Assembly (NCBI GenBank): GCA_000004695.1
Contig: CM000150.2
Location: 4,384,001-4,448,000, forward strand
Reading direction: 5' to 3'
DNA from: Dictyostelium discoideum
Lineage: Eukaryota
DNA length: 64,000 bases
Position 1 is the stretch's first letter; each line of letters starts with the position of its first letter. Shown in pieces: positions 3,835-39,204 of this stretch. Under the pieces are notes generated by a model. The model saw only the letters and a list, made by a program, of their open reading frames with translations, was not told the origin of the DNA and did no database searches. Position numbers and translations under genes: made by a program.

Positions 3835-4410
3835 GTGTGATATCTCGTCTTTCTTGATTTCAAGAAAATAGATCATTTGTAAATAAAATTTTATTTATTT
3901 TTTTTTTTTAATAATTTTTTTTATTTATTTATTTATTTAATTTTAATTTTAATAACAAATATTTGAAATAAATATTAATAATTACTATTTATTTATTAAA
4001 TTTATTTATTAATTTTATTAATTTATTAATAAATTTTATTTATTTATTAATTTTATAAATTTAATTATTAATTTATTTATTATTTATTTTATTTTATTTT
4101 ATTATATTTATTTTGTTTATTAATTTTATTTTATTTTATTTTATTTATTTATTAAATTTTATTTATTTTATTTTATTTTATTTATTTATTCCTCAAAGGT
4201 ACAATCATTTGTATATTTGTAAAAATTAGGTTTTCGCTATTATTGTTAATTTTTATTAATATGTAGATTAATTTATGAATTTTATTTTTGAGCTTATTGT
4301 TATTATTTTTTTTATTGTCAAAGAGTTGTTGTTAAAAATAATTATTTGAATTGTTATTGGTTTTTTTTTTTTTTTTTTACAAGATTTATTTAATACCAAA
4401 TAAATTATTA

Positions 4411-4543
4411 CAATGCTTTACGAAAATGAAAAAAAAAATTTATGATAATTGTGAAATAAAATAAAAAAAAACAAATACAAAATATATATTTAAAAATTAT
4501 CATAAATTTTTTTTTTTTCATTTTCGTAAAGCATTGTAATAAT
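4411..4543. repeat. near-perfect inverted repeat (hairpin): ~45-bp arms ATTACAATGCTTTACGAAAATGAAAAAAAAAATTTATGATAATT / reverse complement, ~38-nt spacer
   Basis: Arms at 4411-4456 and 4496-4543 are reverse complements of each other apart from an A/T homopolymer length difference. The repeat is intergenic between the GH5 and HGSNAT-like genes. Confidence 0.8.
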
Positions 4544-4571
4544 TAATCCTTTTTCCGATTTTAGGGATTTG

Positions 4572-5779: not shown

Positions 5780-5842
<63 letters not shown>

Positions 5843-6889
5843 TAAATAGCATGGTATGGTATTATTAGAAGAACATTATTATTATTTTTTATTCAATGTT
5901 TTTTAAATTTAATGGGAGATCATTTTAATTTTACAACATTTAGAATTATGGGTGTTTTACAAAGAATTGCAATTTGTTATTTTTTTAGTTGTCTTTCTTT
6001 TCTTTGTTTTCCAATTTTCCTTCAAAGATTATTTTTATTAAGTGTAACTGTAACTTATATTTCAATTATGTATGCATTAAATGTACCAAAATGTGGTAGA
6101 GCAAATTTAACTCAAAATTGTAATGCTGGTGCTTATATTGATTCAAAAGTATTTGGTTTAAATATGTAAGTAGAAAAAAATAAAAATAAAAAAAATAAAA
6201 TATATGTGTGTATGTTTATTAATTATTATTTTTTTATTTTTTTTTTTTTTTTTTTTATTTTTAGAATGAAAGAAAGTAATTTAAATGGACCATATTATAA
6301 TGATCCAGAAGGTTTAATTTCAACAATGAGTTCATTTATTACAGCATGGATGGGATTAGAATTTGGTAGAATTTTTACAAGATTTTATAAAAAACATGAT
6401 TTTGGTAATACTGATATTATTGTAAGATGGATTTTATTGGTTATTTTATTTATGGTACCAGCGATTTCATTAGGTGCAACAGTTATGCCATTTAATAAAA
6501 AGATTTGGAGTTTTAGTTTTGCTTTATTTACAGTTGGTGCAAGTGGTTCATTAATTTTAATTGCATTTATTTTAATTGATGTTATTGATTGGGAATCATT
6601 AAAATGTGAAAAAGTTAGAAAAATAATCGATTTAATTATTAAACCAATGAAATGGATTGGTCAAAATCCAATCACAATCTATTCATTAATGGTTTTCATT
6701 GAAATCATTCTAATGTATTATATTAATGTTGGTTCAAATTCACTTTGGGTTCAAATTTATGAAAAAATGTATTTATCTTGGTTAAAAAATGGTTACTTAG
6801 CTTCAACTGTTTTTTCAATAGGTTGGTTAATATTTTTTATTTTAATTGCATATATTATGCAAAGAAATAAAATATTTATTAAACTTTAA
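5263..6889 (+). CDS. heparan-alpha-glucosaminide N-acetyltransferase-like multi-pass membrane protein (HGSNAT/DUF1624 family)
   Basis: Four exons: 5263..5447, 5561..5718, 5849..6165, 6265..6889. Conserved LDAVRGLTIFGMM...WNGLSTADLIFPSFIFISGFS block matches the HGSNAT N-terminal transmembrane region, followed by multiple hydrophobic helices. Exon phases are consistent across junctions. Confidence 0.85.
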
Positions 6890-7944: not shown

Positions 7945-8082
7945 AAACAAATTAAATACATGTATTTATTTAAAAAAAAAAAAAAAAAAACAAAAACAAA
8001 AACACTTTTGTCTTTAAACAATCAAAACTTTTTTTTTTTATTATTTTTATTTATTTTTTTTTTTTTCATTTTTTCATTTTTT

Positions 8083-8121
<39 letters not shown>

Positions 8122-8162
8122 TGTTTTTTATCAAAATTTTGCTTCAACCACACACAAAAATG

Positions 8163-8426
8163 ATGAGATTTTCAAAGTTAGTCAGATGTACTAATAGTAT
8201 CATCAAATCAAACCAAATTCAAAGATCATTTATCTCAACTTCATTTGTACAACAACAACAACCATCAAAATCAGTTTTAACTTTAAACAACAACAACAAT
8301 AAATATATTCAAAAGAGATCTTATGCATCTGGTAGTGAAGATGAACCATGGTTATTAGAAAAAGCTGGTAAAGTGTTTTACATTTTTTATTTTTTAATTA
8401 TACTATCTTATAGTTTTGTTTATTAT

Positions 8427-8457
<31 letters not shown>

Positions 8458-9068
8458 CATACTAACAATGAAATTTTAATTTTTATATAAATATTACAGA
8501 TCCATCAATTCTTCAAGATGATCGTAGGTTTCAATTTTATTTATTATAGAGTTTTAGAAATTATTTTGATAATTATGATGATTACATGTTAACACATACA
8601 TATTTAAATTCATACACACATATACATATATATTTATATTATAGATCCAGGTTATCCATTTTCAGAATTAGTAGATACAACACTTCCAGAATTTAGCATT
8701 CAAGAAGTCTCTCGTCATAATTCAAGAGAGGATTGTTGGATTATCATTAATGAAAAAGTTTACAATGTTTCCTCATATGTTTCATCTCATCCAGGTGGTG
8801 ATATGATTTTACAAGTAAATATTATTATTATTATTTATTTATTAATAAATGGTTTTCATAACCATTAAATCATTTTTAATTATTAATTATTATTATTATT
8901 ATTATTATTTCTATAGAATGCAGGTGGTGAATCAACAACTTTATTCAAAGAAGCACCAATGACTTCATATGCACATGTTATCATGAAAGATTTTCATATT
9001 GGATATTGTCGTCATCAAAGAAGATTTGATGGCTTCACTCCAAGACAACATGACGAAGATCATCACTA
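8163..9068 (+). CDS. cytochrome b5-like heme-binding domain protein with N-terminal mitochondrial-type presequence
   Basis: Exon 1 from 8163 carries the presequence MMRFSKLVRCTNSIIKS. Internal exon ~8645..8814 encodes EVSRHNSREDCWIIINEKVYNVSSYVSSHPGGDMILQ, with the HPGG heme-binding motif. Last exon is 8917..9068. The exon-1 donor (8367 vs 8372) and a possible 24-nt mini-exon at 8500..8523 are ambiguous. Confidence 0.7.
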
Positions 9069-20423: not shown

Positions 20424-24096
<3,673 letters not shown>

Positions 24097-26083: not shown

Positions 26084-28006
26084 TCAATCTAATTCGTCTA
26101 CTTTGTTGTTTGAACTCTTTGGTGAATCATTTGACATACCACCTGGCATACCACCACCTTGTGGCATACCTCCTTCTTGATAGAGTTTACTCATGATTGG
26201 ATTGACAACTGCTTCTAAGGCTTTCATCTTATCTTCATATTCATCCTTTTCTGCGGTTTGATTTGATTCTAACCATTTGAGTACACTTTCAGTTTCAGAT
26301 TCAATAGTTGATTTATCTGAATCTGAAATTTTGGCTGCAACTTTTTCATCTTTAATTGAATTTTTAACAGTGAATGCATAATTTTCCAATTTATTCTTTG
26401 ATTCAACACGATCTTTTTGTTGTTCATCTTGTTGTTTGAATTTCTCTGCATCAGCAACCATTTTTTCAATTTCTTCTTTTGAAAGACGACCTTTATCATT
26501 GGTAATTGTAATCTTTTGTTTGTTACCAGTTGATTTATCTTCAGCTGATACATTTAAGATACCATTTGCATCAACATCAAATGTAACTTCAACTTGTGGT
26601 ACACCTCTTGGTGCTGGTGGAATACCAGAAAGTTCAAATTTACCCAATAAATTATTATCTTTGGTCATAGCACGTTCACCTTCATAAACTTGAATTAATA
26701 CACCTGGTTGATTATCAGAGTATGTAGAGAAGGTTTGAGTTTTCTTACATGGAATTGTTGTATTTCTTGGAATAAGAGTTGTCATAACACCACCAGCAGT
26801 TTCTAAACCCATTGATAATGGTGCAACATCTAACAATAAAAGATCAGCAACTTTAGCACCACCTTCATTTGAAAGAATTGCAGCTTGTACAGCGGCACCA
26901 TAAGCAACAGCTTCATCTGGATTAATTGATTTATTCAATTCTTTACCATTGAAAAATTCTTGTAATAATTGTTGTACCTTTGGAATACGAGTTGAACCAC
27001 CAACTAAAACAATTTCATGAATTGATTTCTTATCCAATTTACTATCTTTTAATACTTTTTCAACTGGATCTAAACAACCACGGAAAAGATCAGCACAGAG
27101 TTCTTCAAAACGTGCTCTAGTAATTGAAGTATAGAAATCAATACCTTCAAAGAGTGAATCAATTTCAATTGAAGCTTGAGCAGATGATGAAAGAGTTCTT
27201 TTGGCACGTTCACAAGCAGTTCTTAAACGACGAACAGCACGTTGATTACCCATAATATCTTTTTTATGTTTACGTTTAAATTCATCAACAAAGTGAGAAA
27301 CGAGACGATTATCAAAATCTTCACCACCTAAATGAGTATCACCAGCGGTGGCTTTAACTTCAAATACACCATCTTCAATGGTAAGGAGAGAAACATCAAA
27401 TGTACCACCACCTAAATCGAAAATTAAAATATTCTTTTCACCAGAACCTTTCTTTTCTAAACCATAAGCAATAGCAGCAGCAGTTGGTTCATTAATAATA
27501 CGTTGAACATTTAATTTTGAAATTGTACCAGCATCTTTGGTTGCTTGACGTTGACTATCATTGAAATAAGCTGGAACGGTAATTACAGCATTATTAATGG
27601 TTTTACCAAGATAAGCTTCAGCGGTTTCTTTCATTTTTAAGAGTACCATTGAAGAGATTTCTTCTGGTGAGAAAACTTTAGTTTCACCTTTGAATTCAAC
27701 TTGAATATGTGGCTTATCACCATCCTTTGGAATAACTTTGAATGGCCAATGTTTCATATCACTTTGAACTTCTTTGTCACTAAATTTACGACCAATTAAA
27801 CGTTTAGCATCAAATACTGTATTGGTTGGATTCATTGCAACTTGATTCTTTGCAGCATCACCAATTAAACGTTCTGTATCAGTAAATGCAACATAAGATG
27901 GAGTGGTTCTATTACCTTGATCATTTGCAATAATTTCAACACGATCATTTTGCCAAACACCAACACATGAATATGTTGTACCTAAATCAATACCAATTGA
28001 TGACAT
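26084..28006 (-). CDS. Hsp70 family chaperone, cytosolic type (640 aa, intronless)
   Basis: [39 protein letters not shown] and the rest of the canonical Hsp70 ATPase and substrate-binding domains. No signal peptide or organellar presequence. C-terminus GGMPGGM...NNKVDELD rather than EEVD. Confidence 0.95.
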
Positions 28007-28370: not shown

Positions 28371-28846
28371 TAAAAAAAAAATTATTATTTATTTATTTAT
28401 TTACAAAAATTTATATACAAAAAAATTAATCTTTATATATTTATACTATTATTATTATTATAAATTAAATTGAACTACTGAATTAACAATAATGAAAGAT
28501 TTTTATTTGGGGTTTAAATAATTTTTTTTTTTTTTTAAATTTTCAACCACTGGATTTTTTTTTTGGTTTTTGGATGAAATTTAAAAAAAAATCCATAAAT
28601 TTTTATCGTAAAATTTTGAGATTTAATGGGATTTCACATAGTTTCACCCAAAAAGGTTTCAAGATCCCAAATAAAAATTTTTTAAATTTTTTTTTTTTTT
28701 TATTTTTTTTTTTTTTATTTTTATTTTTATTTTTTTATTTTTTTATTTTTTTTTTATGTTGAATCGTAAAAAAAATTAATTTTTTTAAAATTTTTTTCCT
28801 TATTAATTTTTTACGATCCAATGAACGCATGTGATTAATTTTATTG

Positions 28847-31135: not shown

Positions 31136-31508
31136 TTAATATAACATTTGACCCATTGAATCATAAAAACAAATCATTTTACAAAATTTATCAGAATTTG
31201 AAGCAGCTTTAATAAATTCTTCTTTATTCATTCCTTTTTTTTTATTTGACATATTTTCAGCTGAACAAATTGAAAATACATAATTTGTTACACCACTATA
31301 ATCCATACCCAATGATGTACCACATGCAACTGCAACTCCAATTAATTTTTCAACTTCATCAACTTCAAGATGACCACTTTGATCTTTATCAAATAAATCA
31401 AATAAAAGACTTAATTTTTCAACAACTGGTGCTTTTGTCATAATATATAATGATGTTACAAATTCTTTAAAATCTAATATTCCATTCTAATTAATTAATT
31501 AAATAAGT

Positions 31509-31547
<39 letters not shown>

Positions 31548-31868
31548 AAATTAATATTATTAATAATTAATTATTATTTATTATCTAATATTATTTTATT
31601 AATTTTTTTTTTTTTTTTAAAAAAAATAACATACACAATCAGTATCAAATAATTTAAATAATTGTATTAATAAATCTTTATCCCAATCTCTGAAACGACA
31701 ATAAAAGAAATCTATAAATTCAGATTCTGTAAAACCAGATTTTTTATCTTTTGATGAGTATTCATTATAATCTTTACTAAGTTTATCAATTTGATCTTTT
31801 GTATAATTTGTTTTTTTAATTAATTCATTAATTTCTTCTTTTGATAATTTTGTATTTCCAGCTCCCAT
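31136..31868 (-). CDS. N-myristoylated EF-hand calcium-binding protein (NCS/calcineurin-B-like, ~195 aa)
   Basis: Two exons: 31868..31635 and 31486..31136. MGAGNTK myristoylation motif. EF-hand loops DTDC|NGILDFKE (split by the intron) and DKDQSGHLEVDE. Confidence 0.75.
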
Positions 31869-31998
31869 TTTTTTAAATTTTTTAAATTAAAAAAAAGTTA
31901 TATATATATATATATATATTTATTATTTATAAAAAAAAAATAAATAAATAATTATTAAAAAAAAAAAAAAAAAAAAAAAAAATATCTTTTTTATAAAT

Positions 31999-32313: not shown

Positions 32314-32897
32314 TTATTCTAATGAAGTTGCAACATAATCTGCTCTTAAATTATAAGCTCTTGCATTTCTCCATACATAGAAACGAGCTTTAAATCCTTT
32401 GGTTGTTACATTAATTGCTTGAACATCAACACGAGTTTGTTGGTAAACATTTGTACCAGTTGCATCAGCAGATGTTGTATCGATATGACCTAATGTAATT
32501 GCAATCAATGGAATTGATTTAAATTCGACTGGGAATAAAACATCAACAAGAATTTCACGAGCACCAGTATTTGTAGTACTATTTAAAACAGTATCAGCAC
32601 CTGGTGAAATATTTCTACCAACTTGAGTGAAACTGTGTTGTTCAATTTCAGCATATAATTCAAATCTTAATGAAATATGAGTATTCCAAGTCAATGGACA
32701 AATAGCAATTGAACGAGCTCTAATTGGAGTATCAAAGAAATGAGTGGTAACTGTATTACGATCACTATTAGCAGCAATAGAACTACCATTTCTATACTCT
32801 TTCCAATTAACACCATCAAGAGTATAACGAACTTTAAATGATGTTACCCATTGATCCACTATTATTTATTCAAATTATTAAATTAATAAATTTTATT

Positions 32898-32973
<76 letters not shown>

Positions 32974-33227
32974 AAAAACTTACAATCACCACGACCTTGA
33001 ATTGCTAAAGAAACATAGGTTTTTGGATTTTCAGAACCAGCCATAATGTATTGATTAGTATCGAGAATAGCAGCACACCAAGCTTCTGAACCACCTTGAG
33101 TATTTGGAGCACCATTTTTAAAATTTAAAACACTATTAAATTGAGTGTGAACACCATTAAAATTAGTTGAAGTTCTAAGATTAACAAGAGAGTTATAAAC
33201 TACTGGAACTAAATTTGCTGTTGACAT
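32314..33227 (-). CDS. discoidin-I-family lectin, copy 1 (N-terminal discoidin/F5-8 type C domain + C-terminal H-type lectin domain)
   Basis: Two exons: 33227..32984 and 32858..32314 (phase 1; junction reads RGD-L-DQW). Strong similarity to discoidin I throughout: [92 protein letters not shown]. The ORF-track M at 32859 is a GTG inside the exon, not a start codon. Confidence 0.85.
32899..32971. repeat. A73 homopolymer (T73 on the gene strand) making up most of discoidin copy-1 intron 1
   Basis: Direct reading. Intron 32983..32859 is GTAAGTTTTTAAT + T73 + a short AT-rich tail ending AATAG. Confidence 0.95.
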
Positions 33228-33240
33228 TTTTTTTTTTTTT

Positions 33241-33790
33241 TTTTAATAAAAGTTAATTTAAATACAATTTATTTAAATTTGATTATAAATGAAATTTATG
33301 TTTTTGTTGATATTAAAAATAAAAAAAAAATTTGTTCTTTTAATAGTTTTTTTTTTTTAATTATAAAATAATAAAATTAAAAAATTAATATAAAAAATAA
33401 ATAAATATATTATTATTTTAGAATCACAAGAATTTTTTTTTAGTTACTATAATTTTTTTTTTTTTTAAATTATCTTTAGATTTTTTTTTTTTTTGGAAAG
33501 ACAAGGAGATGGGAAAAAATAAAAAAATTTGGTTAACACAAAGAAAATGACCGACATTTTTAAATGAAGACATTTTTTTGAGATTTTATTTTTAAAAAAA
33601 AAAAAAAAAAAAAATATCTTTTCTATTTTCTCAAATGATTTTTTGGGCTTTTTTTTTTGACTTTTTAAGATTTTTTGATTAATAGTTTATAGTAGAAAAA
33701 ATAAAATAAAAAATAAAATAAAAAATAAAAAAAAAATAAAATAAAAAATAAAAAAATCCCAAGATTTTGAAATAAAATAGTTTTTTTTTT
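33241..33790 (-). promoter_or_regulatory. conserved upstream/promoter region of discoidin copy 1 (duplicated at 35470-36060)
   Basis: Long blocks identical between the two copies directly 5-prime of both discoidin start codons. Contains the 34-bp segment 33535-33568 that is inverted in copy 2. Confidence 0.4.
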
Positions 33791-33975
33791 TTATTTTTAT
33801 AATATTAAAATAAGTTTTTATAATTTTAATAACATTATCCAATTGAAATAATTAAATCTTAGTTAATAATTCTTCAAAATAAAATTGAATTTTTTGAATG
33901 ATATTATTGAATTCAATAAAAAAAATATTTTATTTGTGATAATACTTAATTAATTGAAATTAAAATGAATTTAAA
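33790..33975 (-). pseudogene. decayed fragment of the 3-prime end of the DUF4209-like gene (homolog of 36069-36408), with the internal (ATT)n tract collapsed
   Basis: The reverse complement reads [40 protein letters not shown], compared with [35 protein letters not shown] in the intact gene. The nucleotide alignment 33781-33966 vs 36060-36408 is clear. Confidence 0.6.
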
Positions 33976-34260
33976 ACAACCACTTTAATCCACATCAATT
34001 TCAATATGACCTGTTTGATCTTTATCAAATAAATCAAATTACTATTTAAATAAATCTTTATCAAAACCTCTGAAATGGTTTAAAAAGAAATCTATAAATT
34101 CATATTCTTAAAAACCAGATTTTTTATCTTTTGAAGTGTATTCATTGTAATCTTTAGTTGGTCTATCAATTTTTATTTTATTTGTTTTTTTAAATTAATT
34201 TATTTATTTCTTCTTTTGATAATTTTGTATTTTCTAGCTCCATTTTTTTAATTTAAAAAA
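33976..34260 (-). pseudogene. decayed partial copy of the EF-hand gene (homolog of ~31338-31860) with an internal ~235-bp deletion, no intact ORF
   Basis: CCACATCAATTTCAATATGACCTGTTTGATCTTTATCAAATAAATCAAAT matches exon 2 of the EF-hand gene. The following segment matches exon 1 (AAATCTTTATC..CTCTGAAA...AAATCTATAAATTCA.ATTCT.AAAACCAGATTTTTTATCTTTTGA). The intron and flanking exon parts are missing between the ATCAAATAA microhomologies. Confidence 0.6.
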
Positions 34261-34563
34261 AAAAAAAAAAAAAACAATCATTAAGTTTTTAAAATAAAAT
34301 AAATAAAAAAATAACTTTTTTGAGTATAAAAAAAAAAAAAAAAAAAAAAAAGAACCTTTCTATTTTTTTTTTCTATTGTTCAATTTAATAAAAGAAATCA
34401 ATTATTCCCATTTTTTTTTATTTTTTTTAATAGAAATTTCAAAAGATATAAATTAAAAAAAAAACTAAATAAATAAGTGAAAATTTGTTTTTTTTTTTTG
34501 TTTTCTGGTAAAAACATAACACATGTGGTAATTAAAATAAAATAAAATTTATTTTTTTTTAAT

Positions 34564-35147
34564 TTATTCTAATGAAGTTGCAACATAATCTGCTCTTAAA
34601 TTATAAGCTCTTGCATTTCTCCATACATAGAAACGAGCTTTGAATCCTTTAGTTGTTACATTAATTGCTTGAACATCGACACGAGTTTGTTGGTAAACAT
34701 TTGTACCAGTTGCATCAGCAGATGTTGTATCGATATGACCTAATGTAATTGCAATCAATGGAATTGATTTAAATTCGACTGGGAATAAAACATCAACAAG
34801 AATTTCACGGGCACCAGTATTTGTAGTACTATTTAAAACAGTATCAGCACCTGGTGAAATATTTCTACCAACTTGAGTGAAACTGTGTTGTTCAATTTCA
34901 GCATATAATTCAAATCTTAATGAAATATGAGTATTCCAAGTCAATGGACAAATTGCAATTGAACGAGCTCTAATTGGAGTATCAAAGAAATGAGTGGTAA
35001 CTGTATTACGATCACTATTAGCAGCAATAGAACTACCATTTCTATACTCTTTCCAATTAACACCATCAAGAGTATAACGAACTTTAAATGATGTTACCCA
35101 TTGATCCACTATTATGTATTTAAATTATTAAATTAATAAATTTTAAT

Positions 35148-35215
<68 letters not shown>

Positions 35216-35469
35216 AAATACTTACAATCACCACGACCTTGAATTGCTAAAGAAACATAGGTTTTTGGATTTTCAGAACCAGCCATAATGTATTGATTAG
35301 TATCGAGAATAGCAGCACACCAAGCTTTTGAACCACCTTGAGTATTTGGAGCACCATTTTTAAAATTTAAAACACTATTAAATTGAGTGTGAACACCATT
35401 AAAATTAGTTGAAGTTTTAAGATTAACAAGAGAGTTATAAACTACTGGAACTAAATTTGCTGTTGACAT
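34564..35469 (-). CDS. discoidin-I-family lectin, copy 2
   Basis: Two exons: 35469..35226 and 35108..34564. Exon 2 protein is identical to copy 1. Exon 1 differs at two residues (R18K, E48K). Intron 1 contains an A65/T65 homopolymer (35149-35213). Confidence 0.85.
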
Positions 35470-36060
35470 TTTTTTTTTTTTTTTTTAATAAAAGTTAATT
35501 TAATACAATGTTTTTAAATTTGATTATAAATGAAATTTATGTTTTGTTGATATTAAATAAAAAAAAAATTTCCTCTTTTTATAGTTTTTTTTTATTATTA
35601 AAATAATAAAAAATAAAAAATTAAAATAAAAATAAATAATTATTTCAGAATCTTGGGAATTTTTAGATTTTAGTTATAATAAATTTTTTTTTTTTTTTTT
35701 TAAATATCTTTGTAATAATTTTTTTTGGAAAGATAAGAAAATGGGAAAATATAAAAAAATTTAGTTCATTTAAAAATGTCGGTCATTTCTTTGTGTTATG
35801 ACATTTTTTTGAGATTTTATTTTTTCAAAAAAAACAAAAAAAAAAAAAAAAAATATCTTTTCTATTTTTGCAAATGATTTTTTTTTTTTTTTTTTTGGGG
35901 TGAAGGGGTAGGCTTTTTTTTGCATTTTAAGATTTTTTGGTCAAAAGTTTATAGTAAAAAAAATTAAATAAAAAATAAAAAAAAAAAAAAAAAATAATAA
36001 TATTAACTAAAAAAAAAAAAATTTCCTAAGATTTTGAAATAAAATAATTATCTTTTTTTT
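35470..36060 (-). promoter_or_regulatory. conserved upstream/promoter region of discoidin copy 2
   Basis: Alignable to 33241-33790. Carries a G-rich insertion GGGGTGAAGGGGTAGG (35893-35915) that copy 1 lacks, and the inverted 34-bp segment (35766-35798). Confidence 0.4.
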
Positions 36061-36068
36061 TTTTTTCC

Positions 36069-39204
<3,136 letters not shown>

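Follow-up and report, generated by a model that had tools for sequence, protein, structure and literature searches.

How does a short piece of promoter come to read in opposite directions in front of two nearly identical neighbouring genes, and what might that change for them? The question is posed by a 64,000-nucleotide stretch of Dictyostelium discoideum AX4 chromosome 1 (hereafter, the window), in which two discoidin-like lectin genes, each with one intron, stand in tandem on the minus strand; we refer to them as g1 and g2 (coordinates of the features are collected in Table 1). Between 296 and 341 nt upstream of their ATGs lies a segment that runs one way at g1 and the other way at g2. Comparison of the two copies with each other and with the orthologous loci of related strains and species identifies a 35-bp in-place microinversion at g2, which is a new instance of a known, ordinary type of mutation.

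A 35-bp microinversion upstream of g2

As written in the window, the g1 copy of the segment reads AACACAAAGAAAATGACCGACATTTTTAAATGAA (33535-33568) and the g2 copy contains TTCATTTAAAAATGTCGGTCATTTCTTTGTGTT, the reverse complement of the g1 string except for one T within a T-run. An earlier note on this DNA had drawn attention to the pair; its g1 string is found exactly as quoted, and its g2 string is present at 35765-35797, one base off the position that it gave (35766-35798). The reverse-complementary relation that it described stands, with 33 of 33 bases matching plus one indel against the paralogue, as do the otherwise colinear flanks, since a global alignment of the two upstream regions fails only across the segment. 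Re-alignment of both copies gave an inversion and not mere divergence, and BLAST returned a minus-strand match of 33521-33587 with 35810-35746 inside the plus-strand tandem unit. Among the non-repetitive 20-mers of the window, only the pair in this segment is reverse-complementary at homologous positions in the two copies of the duplication.

The extent of the flip was read against the true orthologue of the g2 copy, the segment S = TTCATTTAAAAATGTCGGTCATTTCTTTGTGTTAA, which is found in two other D. discoideum isolates (the upstream copy of L002, termed L002_up, and the single copy of L003). Compared with S, the flip covers 35 nt (35765-35799), and 34 of the 35 bases match the reverse complement with no indel; aligned colinearly, the flipped segment matches S at 15 of 35 positions, and the segment matches its own reverse complement at 16 of 35. 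The best reverse-complement match in a shuffle control was 24 of 35, with none higher among 200,000. Flips of 33 or 34 nt were also tried and fail to reproduce the junctions, leaving a 35-nt flip plus one substitution as the most parsimonious description. An ordinary palindrome is ruled out, because the non-palindromic centre is itself reversed (GTCGGT versus ACCGAC). These properties are those by which Potapova, Kondrashov & Mirkin (2022; PMC8755829) recognize a microinversion: more than 15 nt that are reverse-complementary between otherwise colinear homologues, beyond chance. The precise small inversion inside a conserved promoter that had been proposed is borne out by the match to the orthologue and by a block that is kept across species.

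The reading that there was no inversion at all, only chance-like divergence or a mis-assembled reference, can draw on the AT-rich and partly self-complementary character of the segment (AAATG...CATTT, and the 16/35 match to its own reverse complement). It has next to no probability and is essentially excluded, given 34/35 matches against a shuffle maximum of 24/35 and the flipped GTCGGT/ACCGAC centre. Nor was the reference mis-assembled, because the identical arrangement is seen in L004, a long-read assembly made independently from the same lineage and 99.6-100% identical to the window.

The direction of the change was read from the orthologous loci of nine further assemblies, the relatives being named by comparison with Holland et al. 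2025 (PMC12745789). L002 and L003 are D. discoideum isolates with about 2% coding divergence, L001/L006 and L005 are two D. cf. discoideum isolates, L007 and L008 are D. citrinum, L009 is D. dimigraforme, and L010 is D. firmibasis; we infer that L004 is AX2-214. In gene orientation, the block reads ...AAAATCTCA...TC/TTCATTTAAAAATGTCGGTCATTT(T)CTTTGTGT(T)AA/C...TTTCCCATCTTC, with slashes at the ends of the segment. The orientation of g1 is found in both L002 copies, in the single L003 copy, in three D. cf. discoideum copies (L001, L006), in both D. citrinum and in D. firmibasis. Altogether, the forward orientation occurs in 10 of 11 copies, covering 7 genomes from D. discoideum to D. firmibasis, and the flipped form is present only in g2 of the window and of L004. 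When re-inverted over 35 nt, g2 aligns column for column with all the orthologues; left flipped, it is matched by D. citrinum on the minus strand only. The outgroups assign the flipped form to a single lineage, indicating that the g1 orientation, whose ancestry the earlier note had wished to see checked in other strains, is the ancestral one and that the flip is derived in the NC4 lineage. The flip would also predate the separate derivation of AX2 and AX3/AX4, which depends on L004 being AX2-214.

The one-T difference between the two copies does not belong to the event and turned out to be an older difference between upstream- and downstream-type paralogues: the upstream-type copies (L002_up, L003 and the flipped g2) carry CATTTCTTTG and the downstream-type copies (g1 and L002_dn) carry CATTTTCTTTG. 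The donor of the flip was g2 itself and not g1, because the flipped copy has the upstream-type TTT run and not the TTTT of g1. A template copied from the paralogue g1 is excluded by the same run.

Breakpoints and origin of the flip

The ancestral junctions read ...CTCAAAAAAATGTC/S/CTAAATTTTTTTAT..., with S running from TTCATTT to GTGTTAA, and in the derived g2 identical flanks surround the reverse complement of S, with A instead of T as its first base. Close to both breakpoints stand the arms of a perfect 8-bp inverted repeat (Table 1). We think it probable that the flip arose in a replication-based event tied to this inverted repeat, either a template switch or microhomology-mediated break-induced replication (MMBIR). 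In the ancestor of the NC4-derived strains (AX4, AX2), a 35-bp stretch of the g2 promoter would have been replaced by its own reverse complement, the nascent strand having switched template to the complementary strand and then back, or MMBIR having followed a break inside the segment. The change may then have been tolerated, as the duplicate g2 is almost identical to g1 and redundant with it, and upstream elements of this kind are often active either way round.

The closest published parallels are found in primates. All of the 59 definite human-chimp microinversions (17-33 nt, mostly exact) have inverted repeats of 3-75 nt on their flanks, the inner edges lying at -5 to +4 nt and the offsets being correlated between the two sides; a double template switch at the replication fork was discussed for them, and MMBIR was proposed where the arms are short or imperfect (PMC8755829). 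The g2 event resembles them in being an in-place flip of tens of bases (here 35 nt), nearly pure, with one mismatch, and in having a short inverted repeat near both breakpoints, similarly offset on the two sides; the candidate mechanisms are the same. Its inner edges (+4/+3) fall within the published range at both breakpoints, a placement with a chance probability of P = 0.053. It differs in its setting, an organism of about 78% A+T (the G+C of the window is about 20%) where arms made, as here, of simple A/T runs are expected by chance about 5% of the time, and in lying in a conserved promoter block of a recent duplicate, for which the unflipped paralogue serves as an internal reference. Template-switch mutations (PMC5453318; Walker et al. 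2021, PMC7954356) are alike in that one reverse-complement copying event explains an apparent cluster of substitutions. Most of them, however, keep the donor and create or perfect an inverted repeat, whereas here the donor is the replaced segment. The four-point model of Loytynoja & Goldman (2017; PMC5453318) allows both the inversion of a fragment only and the inversion of an inter-strand spacer.

Several observations weigh against a replication-based origin tied to the repeat. S starts with TT and ends with AA, giving a junction microhomology of only 2 nt, and one junction base is mismatched (T>A at 35799; TTAACAC expected, ATAACAC observed), a change that could have arisen with the event, later, or from an unsampled ancestral allele. 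The unflipped g1 shares the flanking inverted repeat. Such a repeat is expected by chance in 5.3% of random 35-nt windows from comparably AT-rich parts of this window, and, being made of common A/T runs, it may be coincidental, suggestive rather than proof. The bases between arms and segment (GTC and CTAA, 3-4 nt) are not inverted, something that a simple switch within perfect arms would not lead one to expect. That the change was tolerated or neutral is an assumption.

Part of this evidence is what a different origin would leave behind, namely two double-strand breaks and religation of the 35-bp fragment in reverse by non-homologous or alternative end joining, the flanking repeat being a coincidence. 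A 2-nt microhomology with one altered base is typical of processed ends, the bases next to the arms stayed uninverted, and a repeat of this kind has a 5% chance of occurring in an AT-rich context. We nevertheless consider such religation unlikely, as it requires two simultaneous breaks 35 bp apart and the retention of a tiny fragment with no base lost or gained, which is improbable. Moreover, definite microinversions in the literature consistently have inverted repeats on their flanks (PMC8755829), and a nearby second flip, described below, also has inverted-repeat arms directly at its boundary.

The earlier note had proposed hairpin-mediated template switching; the template-switch type of origin fits best, but the hairpin finds no support, as DNA folds of ancestral-like, derived and reconstructed ancestral 76-77-mers (z of -1.7, -0.55 and -1.0, respectively) have no stability beyond shuffles, which also counts against the origin that we favour. 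The structural feature that matters is the A/T inverted repeat on either side of the segment and not a hairpin inside it. A quasi-palindrome, AAATG-N5-CATTT, is offset by 1 nt from the segment centre; it was judged uninformative. As a by-product of the flip, two local direct copies (AAAAATGTC...AAAAATGTC) become a 9-bp inverted repeat (AAAAATGTC...GACATTTTT).

Two other geometries were tried and rejected. A flip of the entire loop between the 8-bp arms predicts TTAG...GAC margins, and GTC...CTAA is observed. Classical quasi-palindrome correction (Ripley-type) is at odds with the absence of a retained donor copy, with the predicted X-arm-loop-arm'-X' not being seen, and with the folds not being significant. 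Minute inversions of hairpin loops are said to have been described in chloroplast non-coding DNA by Kelchner and Wendel in 1996. These, too, are reportedly small flips in AT-rich non-coding DNA that have short inverted repeats on both sides, and they recur and are at times homoplastic; the whole loop flips there, whereas here the 3-4 nt beside each arm are unflipped, the DNA is nuclear and folding predicts no stable hairpin.

In having inverted repeats on either side and occurring in both orientations, the short promoter segment formally resembles a programmed, reversible switch operated by a site-specific recombinase, as in phase variation. The resemblance ends there. Each paralogue has one fixed orientation in the two independent assemblies of the lineage, and the other genomes show one orientation only. 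The arms are plain A/T runs, and 35 bp is far too short for recombinase synapsis, by an argument made in PMC8755829. No recombinase is found among the neighbours, which are vps16, an N-rich unknown, an EF-hand protein, a WD40 protein and hsc70. We regard such a switch as extremely improbable; it is essentially excluded.

An unbiased scan for in-place reverse-complement matches in all 45 locus pairs returned no more than two definite events that are non-palindromic and 15 nt or longer, both on the AX lineage: the g2 flip and a second one upstream of the hsc70 gene (Table 1). At the equivalent position, all 27 nt are exactly reverse-complemented in L002 and L003; L005 and L006 share the orientation of L002 and L003 over the core (...TTTTACGATCCAAT...), which is likewise the reverse complement of the AX sequence. 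The segment lies between inverted-repeat arms in L002 and L003 (TTCATTG/CAATG), and the AX allele has an adjoining deletion of about 24 nt. Two direct copies of TTTTTTACGATYCAATG are turned into an inverted repeat, which parallels the change at g2. The second flip shows that the same process recurs at this locus.

In primates, 59 definite human-chimp microinversions per 3 Gb correspond to about 2x10^-8 per bp (PMC8755829). The two events described here (35 nt and at least 27 nt) fall within 16.5 kb at about 2% coding divergence, a density higher by orders of magnitude per substitution, to be read with n = 2 and with the g2 flip having been the reason why the locus was examined. Microinversions bounded by short A/T-run inverted repeats may be unusually frequent in AT-rich Dictyostelium intergenic DNA, a possibility that we put forward tentatively. 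If they are, flips would be a regular way of reorienting conserved promoter elements in place, with the g1/g2 pair as a ready-made test of the consequences, and they would matter for the alignment and interpretation of Dictyostelium promoters, since they mimic clusters of substitutions. The second flip hints that microinversions of the template-switch type may be common in genomes rich in A/T runs and points to a genome-wide survey of Dictyostelium.

Two nucleotides from the g2 segment and its g1 counterpart (35802-35811 and 33571-33580), both AX4 copies read CAAAAAAATG, and D. cf. discoideum reads TAAAAATTG. The equivalent site reads CATTTTTG in both L002 copies (~7650 and ~9350) and CATTTTGG in L003 (~7660). 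The difference between CAAAAAAATG and CATTTTTG is a possible third, very short flip, of an A-run. The A-run change in L002 and L003 removes the left arm of the flanking inverted repeat there.

The promoter block and the possible effect of the flip

The segment holds a core, TCATTT(T)CTTTGTG (13-14 nt), that is invariant in the ten unflipped copies out to D. firmibasis. The adjacent blocks AAAATCT and TTTCCCATCTTC are conserved as well. Because the core and its neighbouring blocks are conserved across species, within intergenic DNA that otherwise evolves fast, the alignment argues for a candidate cis-regulatory module. The constraint is not absolute, because the block is missing in L005 (7580-8000), where the promoter is largely deleted, and in D. 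dimigraforme L009 (7580-8000), where only TTTTCCCATCTTCC is kept. In L005, the gene starts about 200 nt after the (AAT)n-containing end of its neighbour and is annotated as truncated (227 aa).

Through the flip, the core changes strand and comes to lie about 15 bp (about 1.5 helical turns) farther upstream relative to the TTTCCCAT/TTTCCCATCTTC block. Beside the g2 block, CCCATCTTC has a g2-specific C>T that yields CCCATTTTC. The flip might thus have been adaptive or functional, acting on an element that depends on orientation or spacing, so that the regulation of g2 would have changed and the duplicates would have diverged. This proposal concerns the effect of the flip and not its origin, and it is compatible with either mechanism, copying during replication or religation of a broken fragment. 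In its favour are the single orientation of the core in 10 promoter copies from 7 genomes, as well as the combined shift and strand change of the core relative to a block that itself carries a g2-specific substitution. We hold it to be doubtful: the element is absent in L005 and L009 and is hence dispensable in some lineages, a conserved orientation is expected anyway if flips are rare, and the near identity of the g2 and g1 coding sequences could, through redundancy, permit a neutral or mildly deleterious change.

A literature search by the g1 and g2 protein accessions found no paper or expression data. Scanning metagenomes with a 17-mer of the core gave at least 120 matches, and none among the matches listed extends beyond 24 nt of the block; those listed are chance matches in unrelated contigs and are uninformative on wild Dictyostelium.

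Whatever its effect, the pair is a natural experiment on the orientation of a cis-element, with an internal control: two near-identical genes in one cell, with one promoter block flipped. Other D. discoideum isolates carry unflipped copies and add a further comparison to this experiment.

Gene identity and neighbouring sequence

The two proteins are exact matches to XP_646620/EAL72456 and XP_646621/EAL72457, from the 4.92-Mb chromosome 1 contig, and their homologues carry the Pfam domains F5_F8_type_C and H_lectin. They are not discoidin I, which corrects a mis-annotation that is likely to be made by eye. Discoidin I chains A, B/C and D (253 aa) form part of a separate 90% cluster and are encoded on the 8.48-Mb contig of chromosome 2; their identity to the g1 and g2 proteins is 57-59%. 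The two groups are of the same family (a discoidin domain plus an H-type lectin domain) and are both arranged in tandem; they differ in chromosome (2 versus 1), in protein sequence (identity of about 59%) and in the block that is flipped here, which the dscC and dscD upstream regions do not have. In the tandem dscC/dscD locus (L011), the 720 nt upstream of each gene lack the core motif, and the 600-nt g1 and g2 promoters match them by low complexity only. The genes are chromosome 1 paralogues and not the classical discoidin I genes with dissected promoters. The statement of the earlier note that discoidin promoters carry short control elements is indirectly confirmed for dscA, PMC2148174 citing Poole & Firtel 1984 for upstream elements of that gene. 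It is not transferable to g1 and g2, because the locus is a different one and the dscC and dscD promoters share no block with them.

The duplicated unit of about 2.25 kb is 89% identical overall (BLAST, plus-strand tandem), and the two proteins differ at 2 residues; at the DNA level, the differences comprise 2 codons of exon 1 and 5 sites of exon 2. Identity between g1 and g2 is 98-99% in the coding regions and introns and only about 85-89% in the promoters, and the AX4 paralogues are closer to each other (99.1%) than to the L002 orthologues (97.2%). Since both comparisons run this way, they suggest that gene conversion has been confined to the transcribed part of the genes. The AX4 g2 protein carries R18K and E48K; in AX2 (L004), both copies (5790-6664 and 8001-8878) encode the g1 protein.

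Table 1. Positions in the window of the two lectin genes, the flipped segments and the sequence elements around them
Feature	Position	Strand	Basis and remarks
Gene g1, discoidin-like lectin, XP_646620/EAL72456, 262 aa	32314..33227; exons 33227..32984 + 32858..32314	-	Downstream copy; splice model, exact AX4 protein match
Gene g2, discoidin-like lectin, XP_646621/EAL72457, 262 aa	34564..35469; exons 35469..35226 + 35108..34564	-	Upstream copy; splice model, exact AX4 protein match
Flipped 35-bp promoter segment of g2, derived; ATAACACAAAGAAATGACCGACATTTTTAAATGAA in gene orientation	35765..35799; -330 to -296 from ATG	-	34/35 reverse complement of L002_up/L003
Homologous segment at g1, ancestral orientation; TTCATTTAAAAATGTCGGTCATTTTCTTTGTGTTAA in gene orientation	33533..33568; -341 to -306	-	Holds core TCATTT(T)CTTTGTG; orientation shared in L001, L002, L003, L006, L007, L008, L010
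Inverted-repeat arm at g2, AAAAAAAT (+ strand)	35753..35760	.	Inner edge 4 nt outside breakpoint; perfect 8-bp repeat with 35803-35810
Inverted-repeat arm at g2, ATTTTTTT (+ strand)	35803..35810	.	Inner edge 3 nt outside breakpoint
Arm at unflipped g1, AAAAAAAT	33521..33528	.	Arm length 8, offset 4
Arm at unflipped g1, ATTTTTTT	33572..33579	.	Arm length 8, offset 3
Conserved block at g2, TTTCCCAT (gene orientation), just downstream of segment	35741..35748	-	Orthologue alignment
Conserved block at g1, TTTCCCAT (gene orientation)	33509..33516	-	Orthologue alignment
Second microinversion, AX4/AX2 lineage-specific; CATTGGATCGTAAAAAATTAATAAGGA in gene orientation	28797-28823		Locus-pair scan; upstream of hsc70 gene 26084..28006 (-), ~7 kb from g2 flip

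The spacer between g1 and g2 holds remnants of both neighbouring genes. For the downstream EF-hand gene there is a degenerate, incomplete copy at 34023-34363, which shares about 77% identity with 31643-31994, and a further remnant at 33993-34039, with about 91% identity to 31357-31403. The 3' end of the upstream neighbour is also represented (33780-33975), without the long (ATT)n tract; in this copy, 33922-33975 is about 91% identical to 36354-36408. The presence of these fragments implies that the unit first duplicated extended beyond the lectin gene.

The number of lectin gene copies varies among the loci, with one in L003 and L005 and two in AX4, AX2 and L002, where the spacing of the copies is about 2.24 kb (AX4/AX2) or about 1.71 kb (L002). 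D. cf. discoideum (L001/L006) has three, one of them broken by a 1903-aa open reading frame (ORF), which is probably a retroelement. Two extra discoidin-like genes (259/261 aa) are found between the EF-hand and WD40 genes in D. citrinum, D. dimigraforme and D. firmibasis and are absent from D. discoideum.

Two other exact reverse-complement pairs of 20-mers were seen in the window. The plus-strand ORF 21355..24096 contains TCATTTTATAAATGGATTGGTAG twice (23548-23600), and the reverse complement of this sequence is found at the 3' end of the minus-strand neighbour gene 36069..38522 (36409-36431); to judge from this shared sequence, the ORF and the gene may be paralogues. Finally, a local inverted repeat, AATTATTACAATGCTTTACG, has its copies about 100 nt apart at 4403-4422 and 4525-4544.

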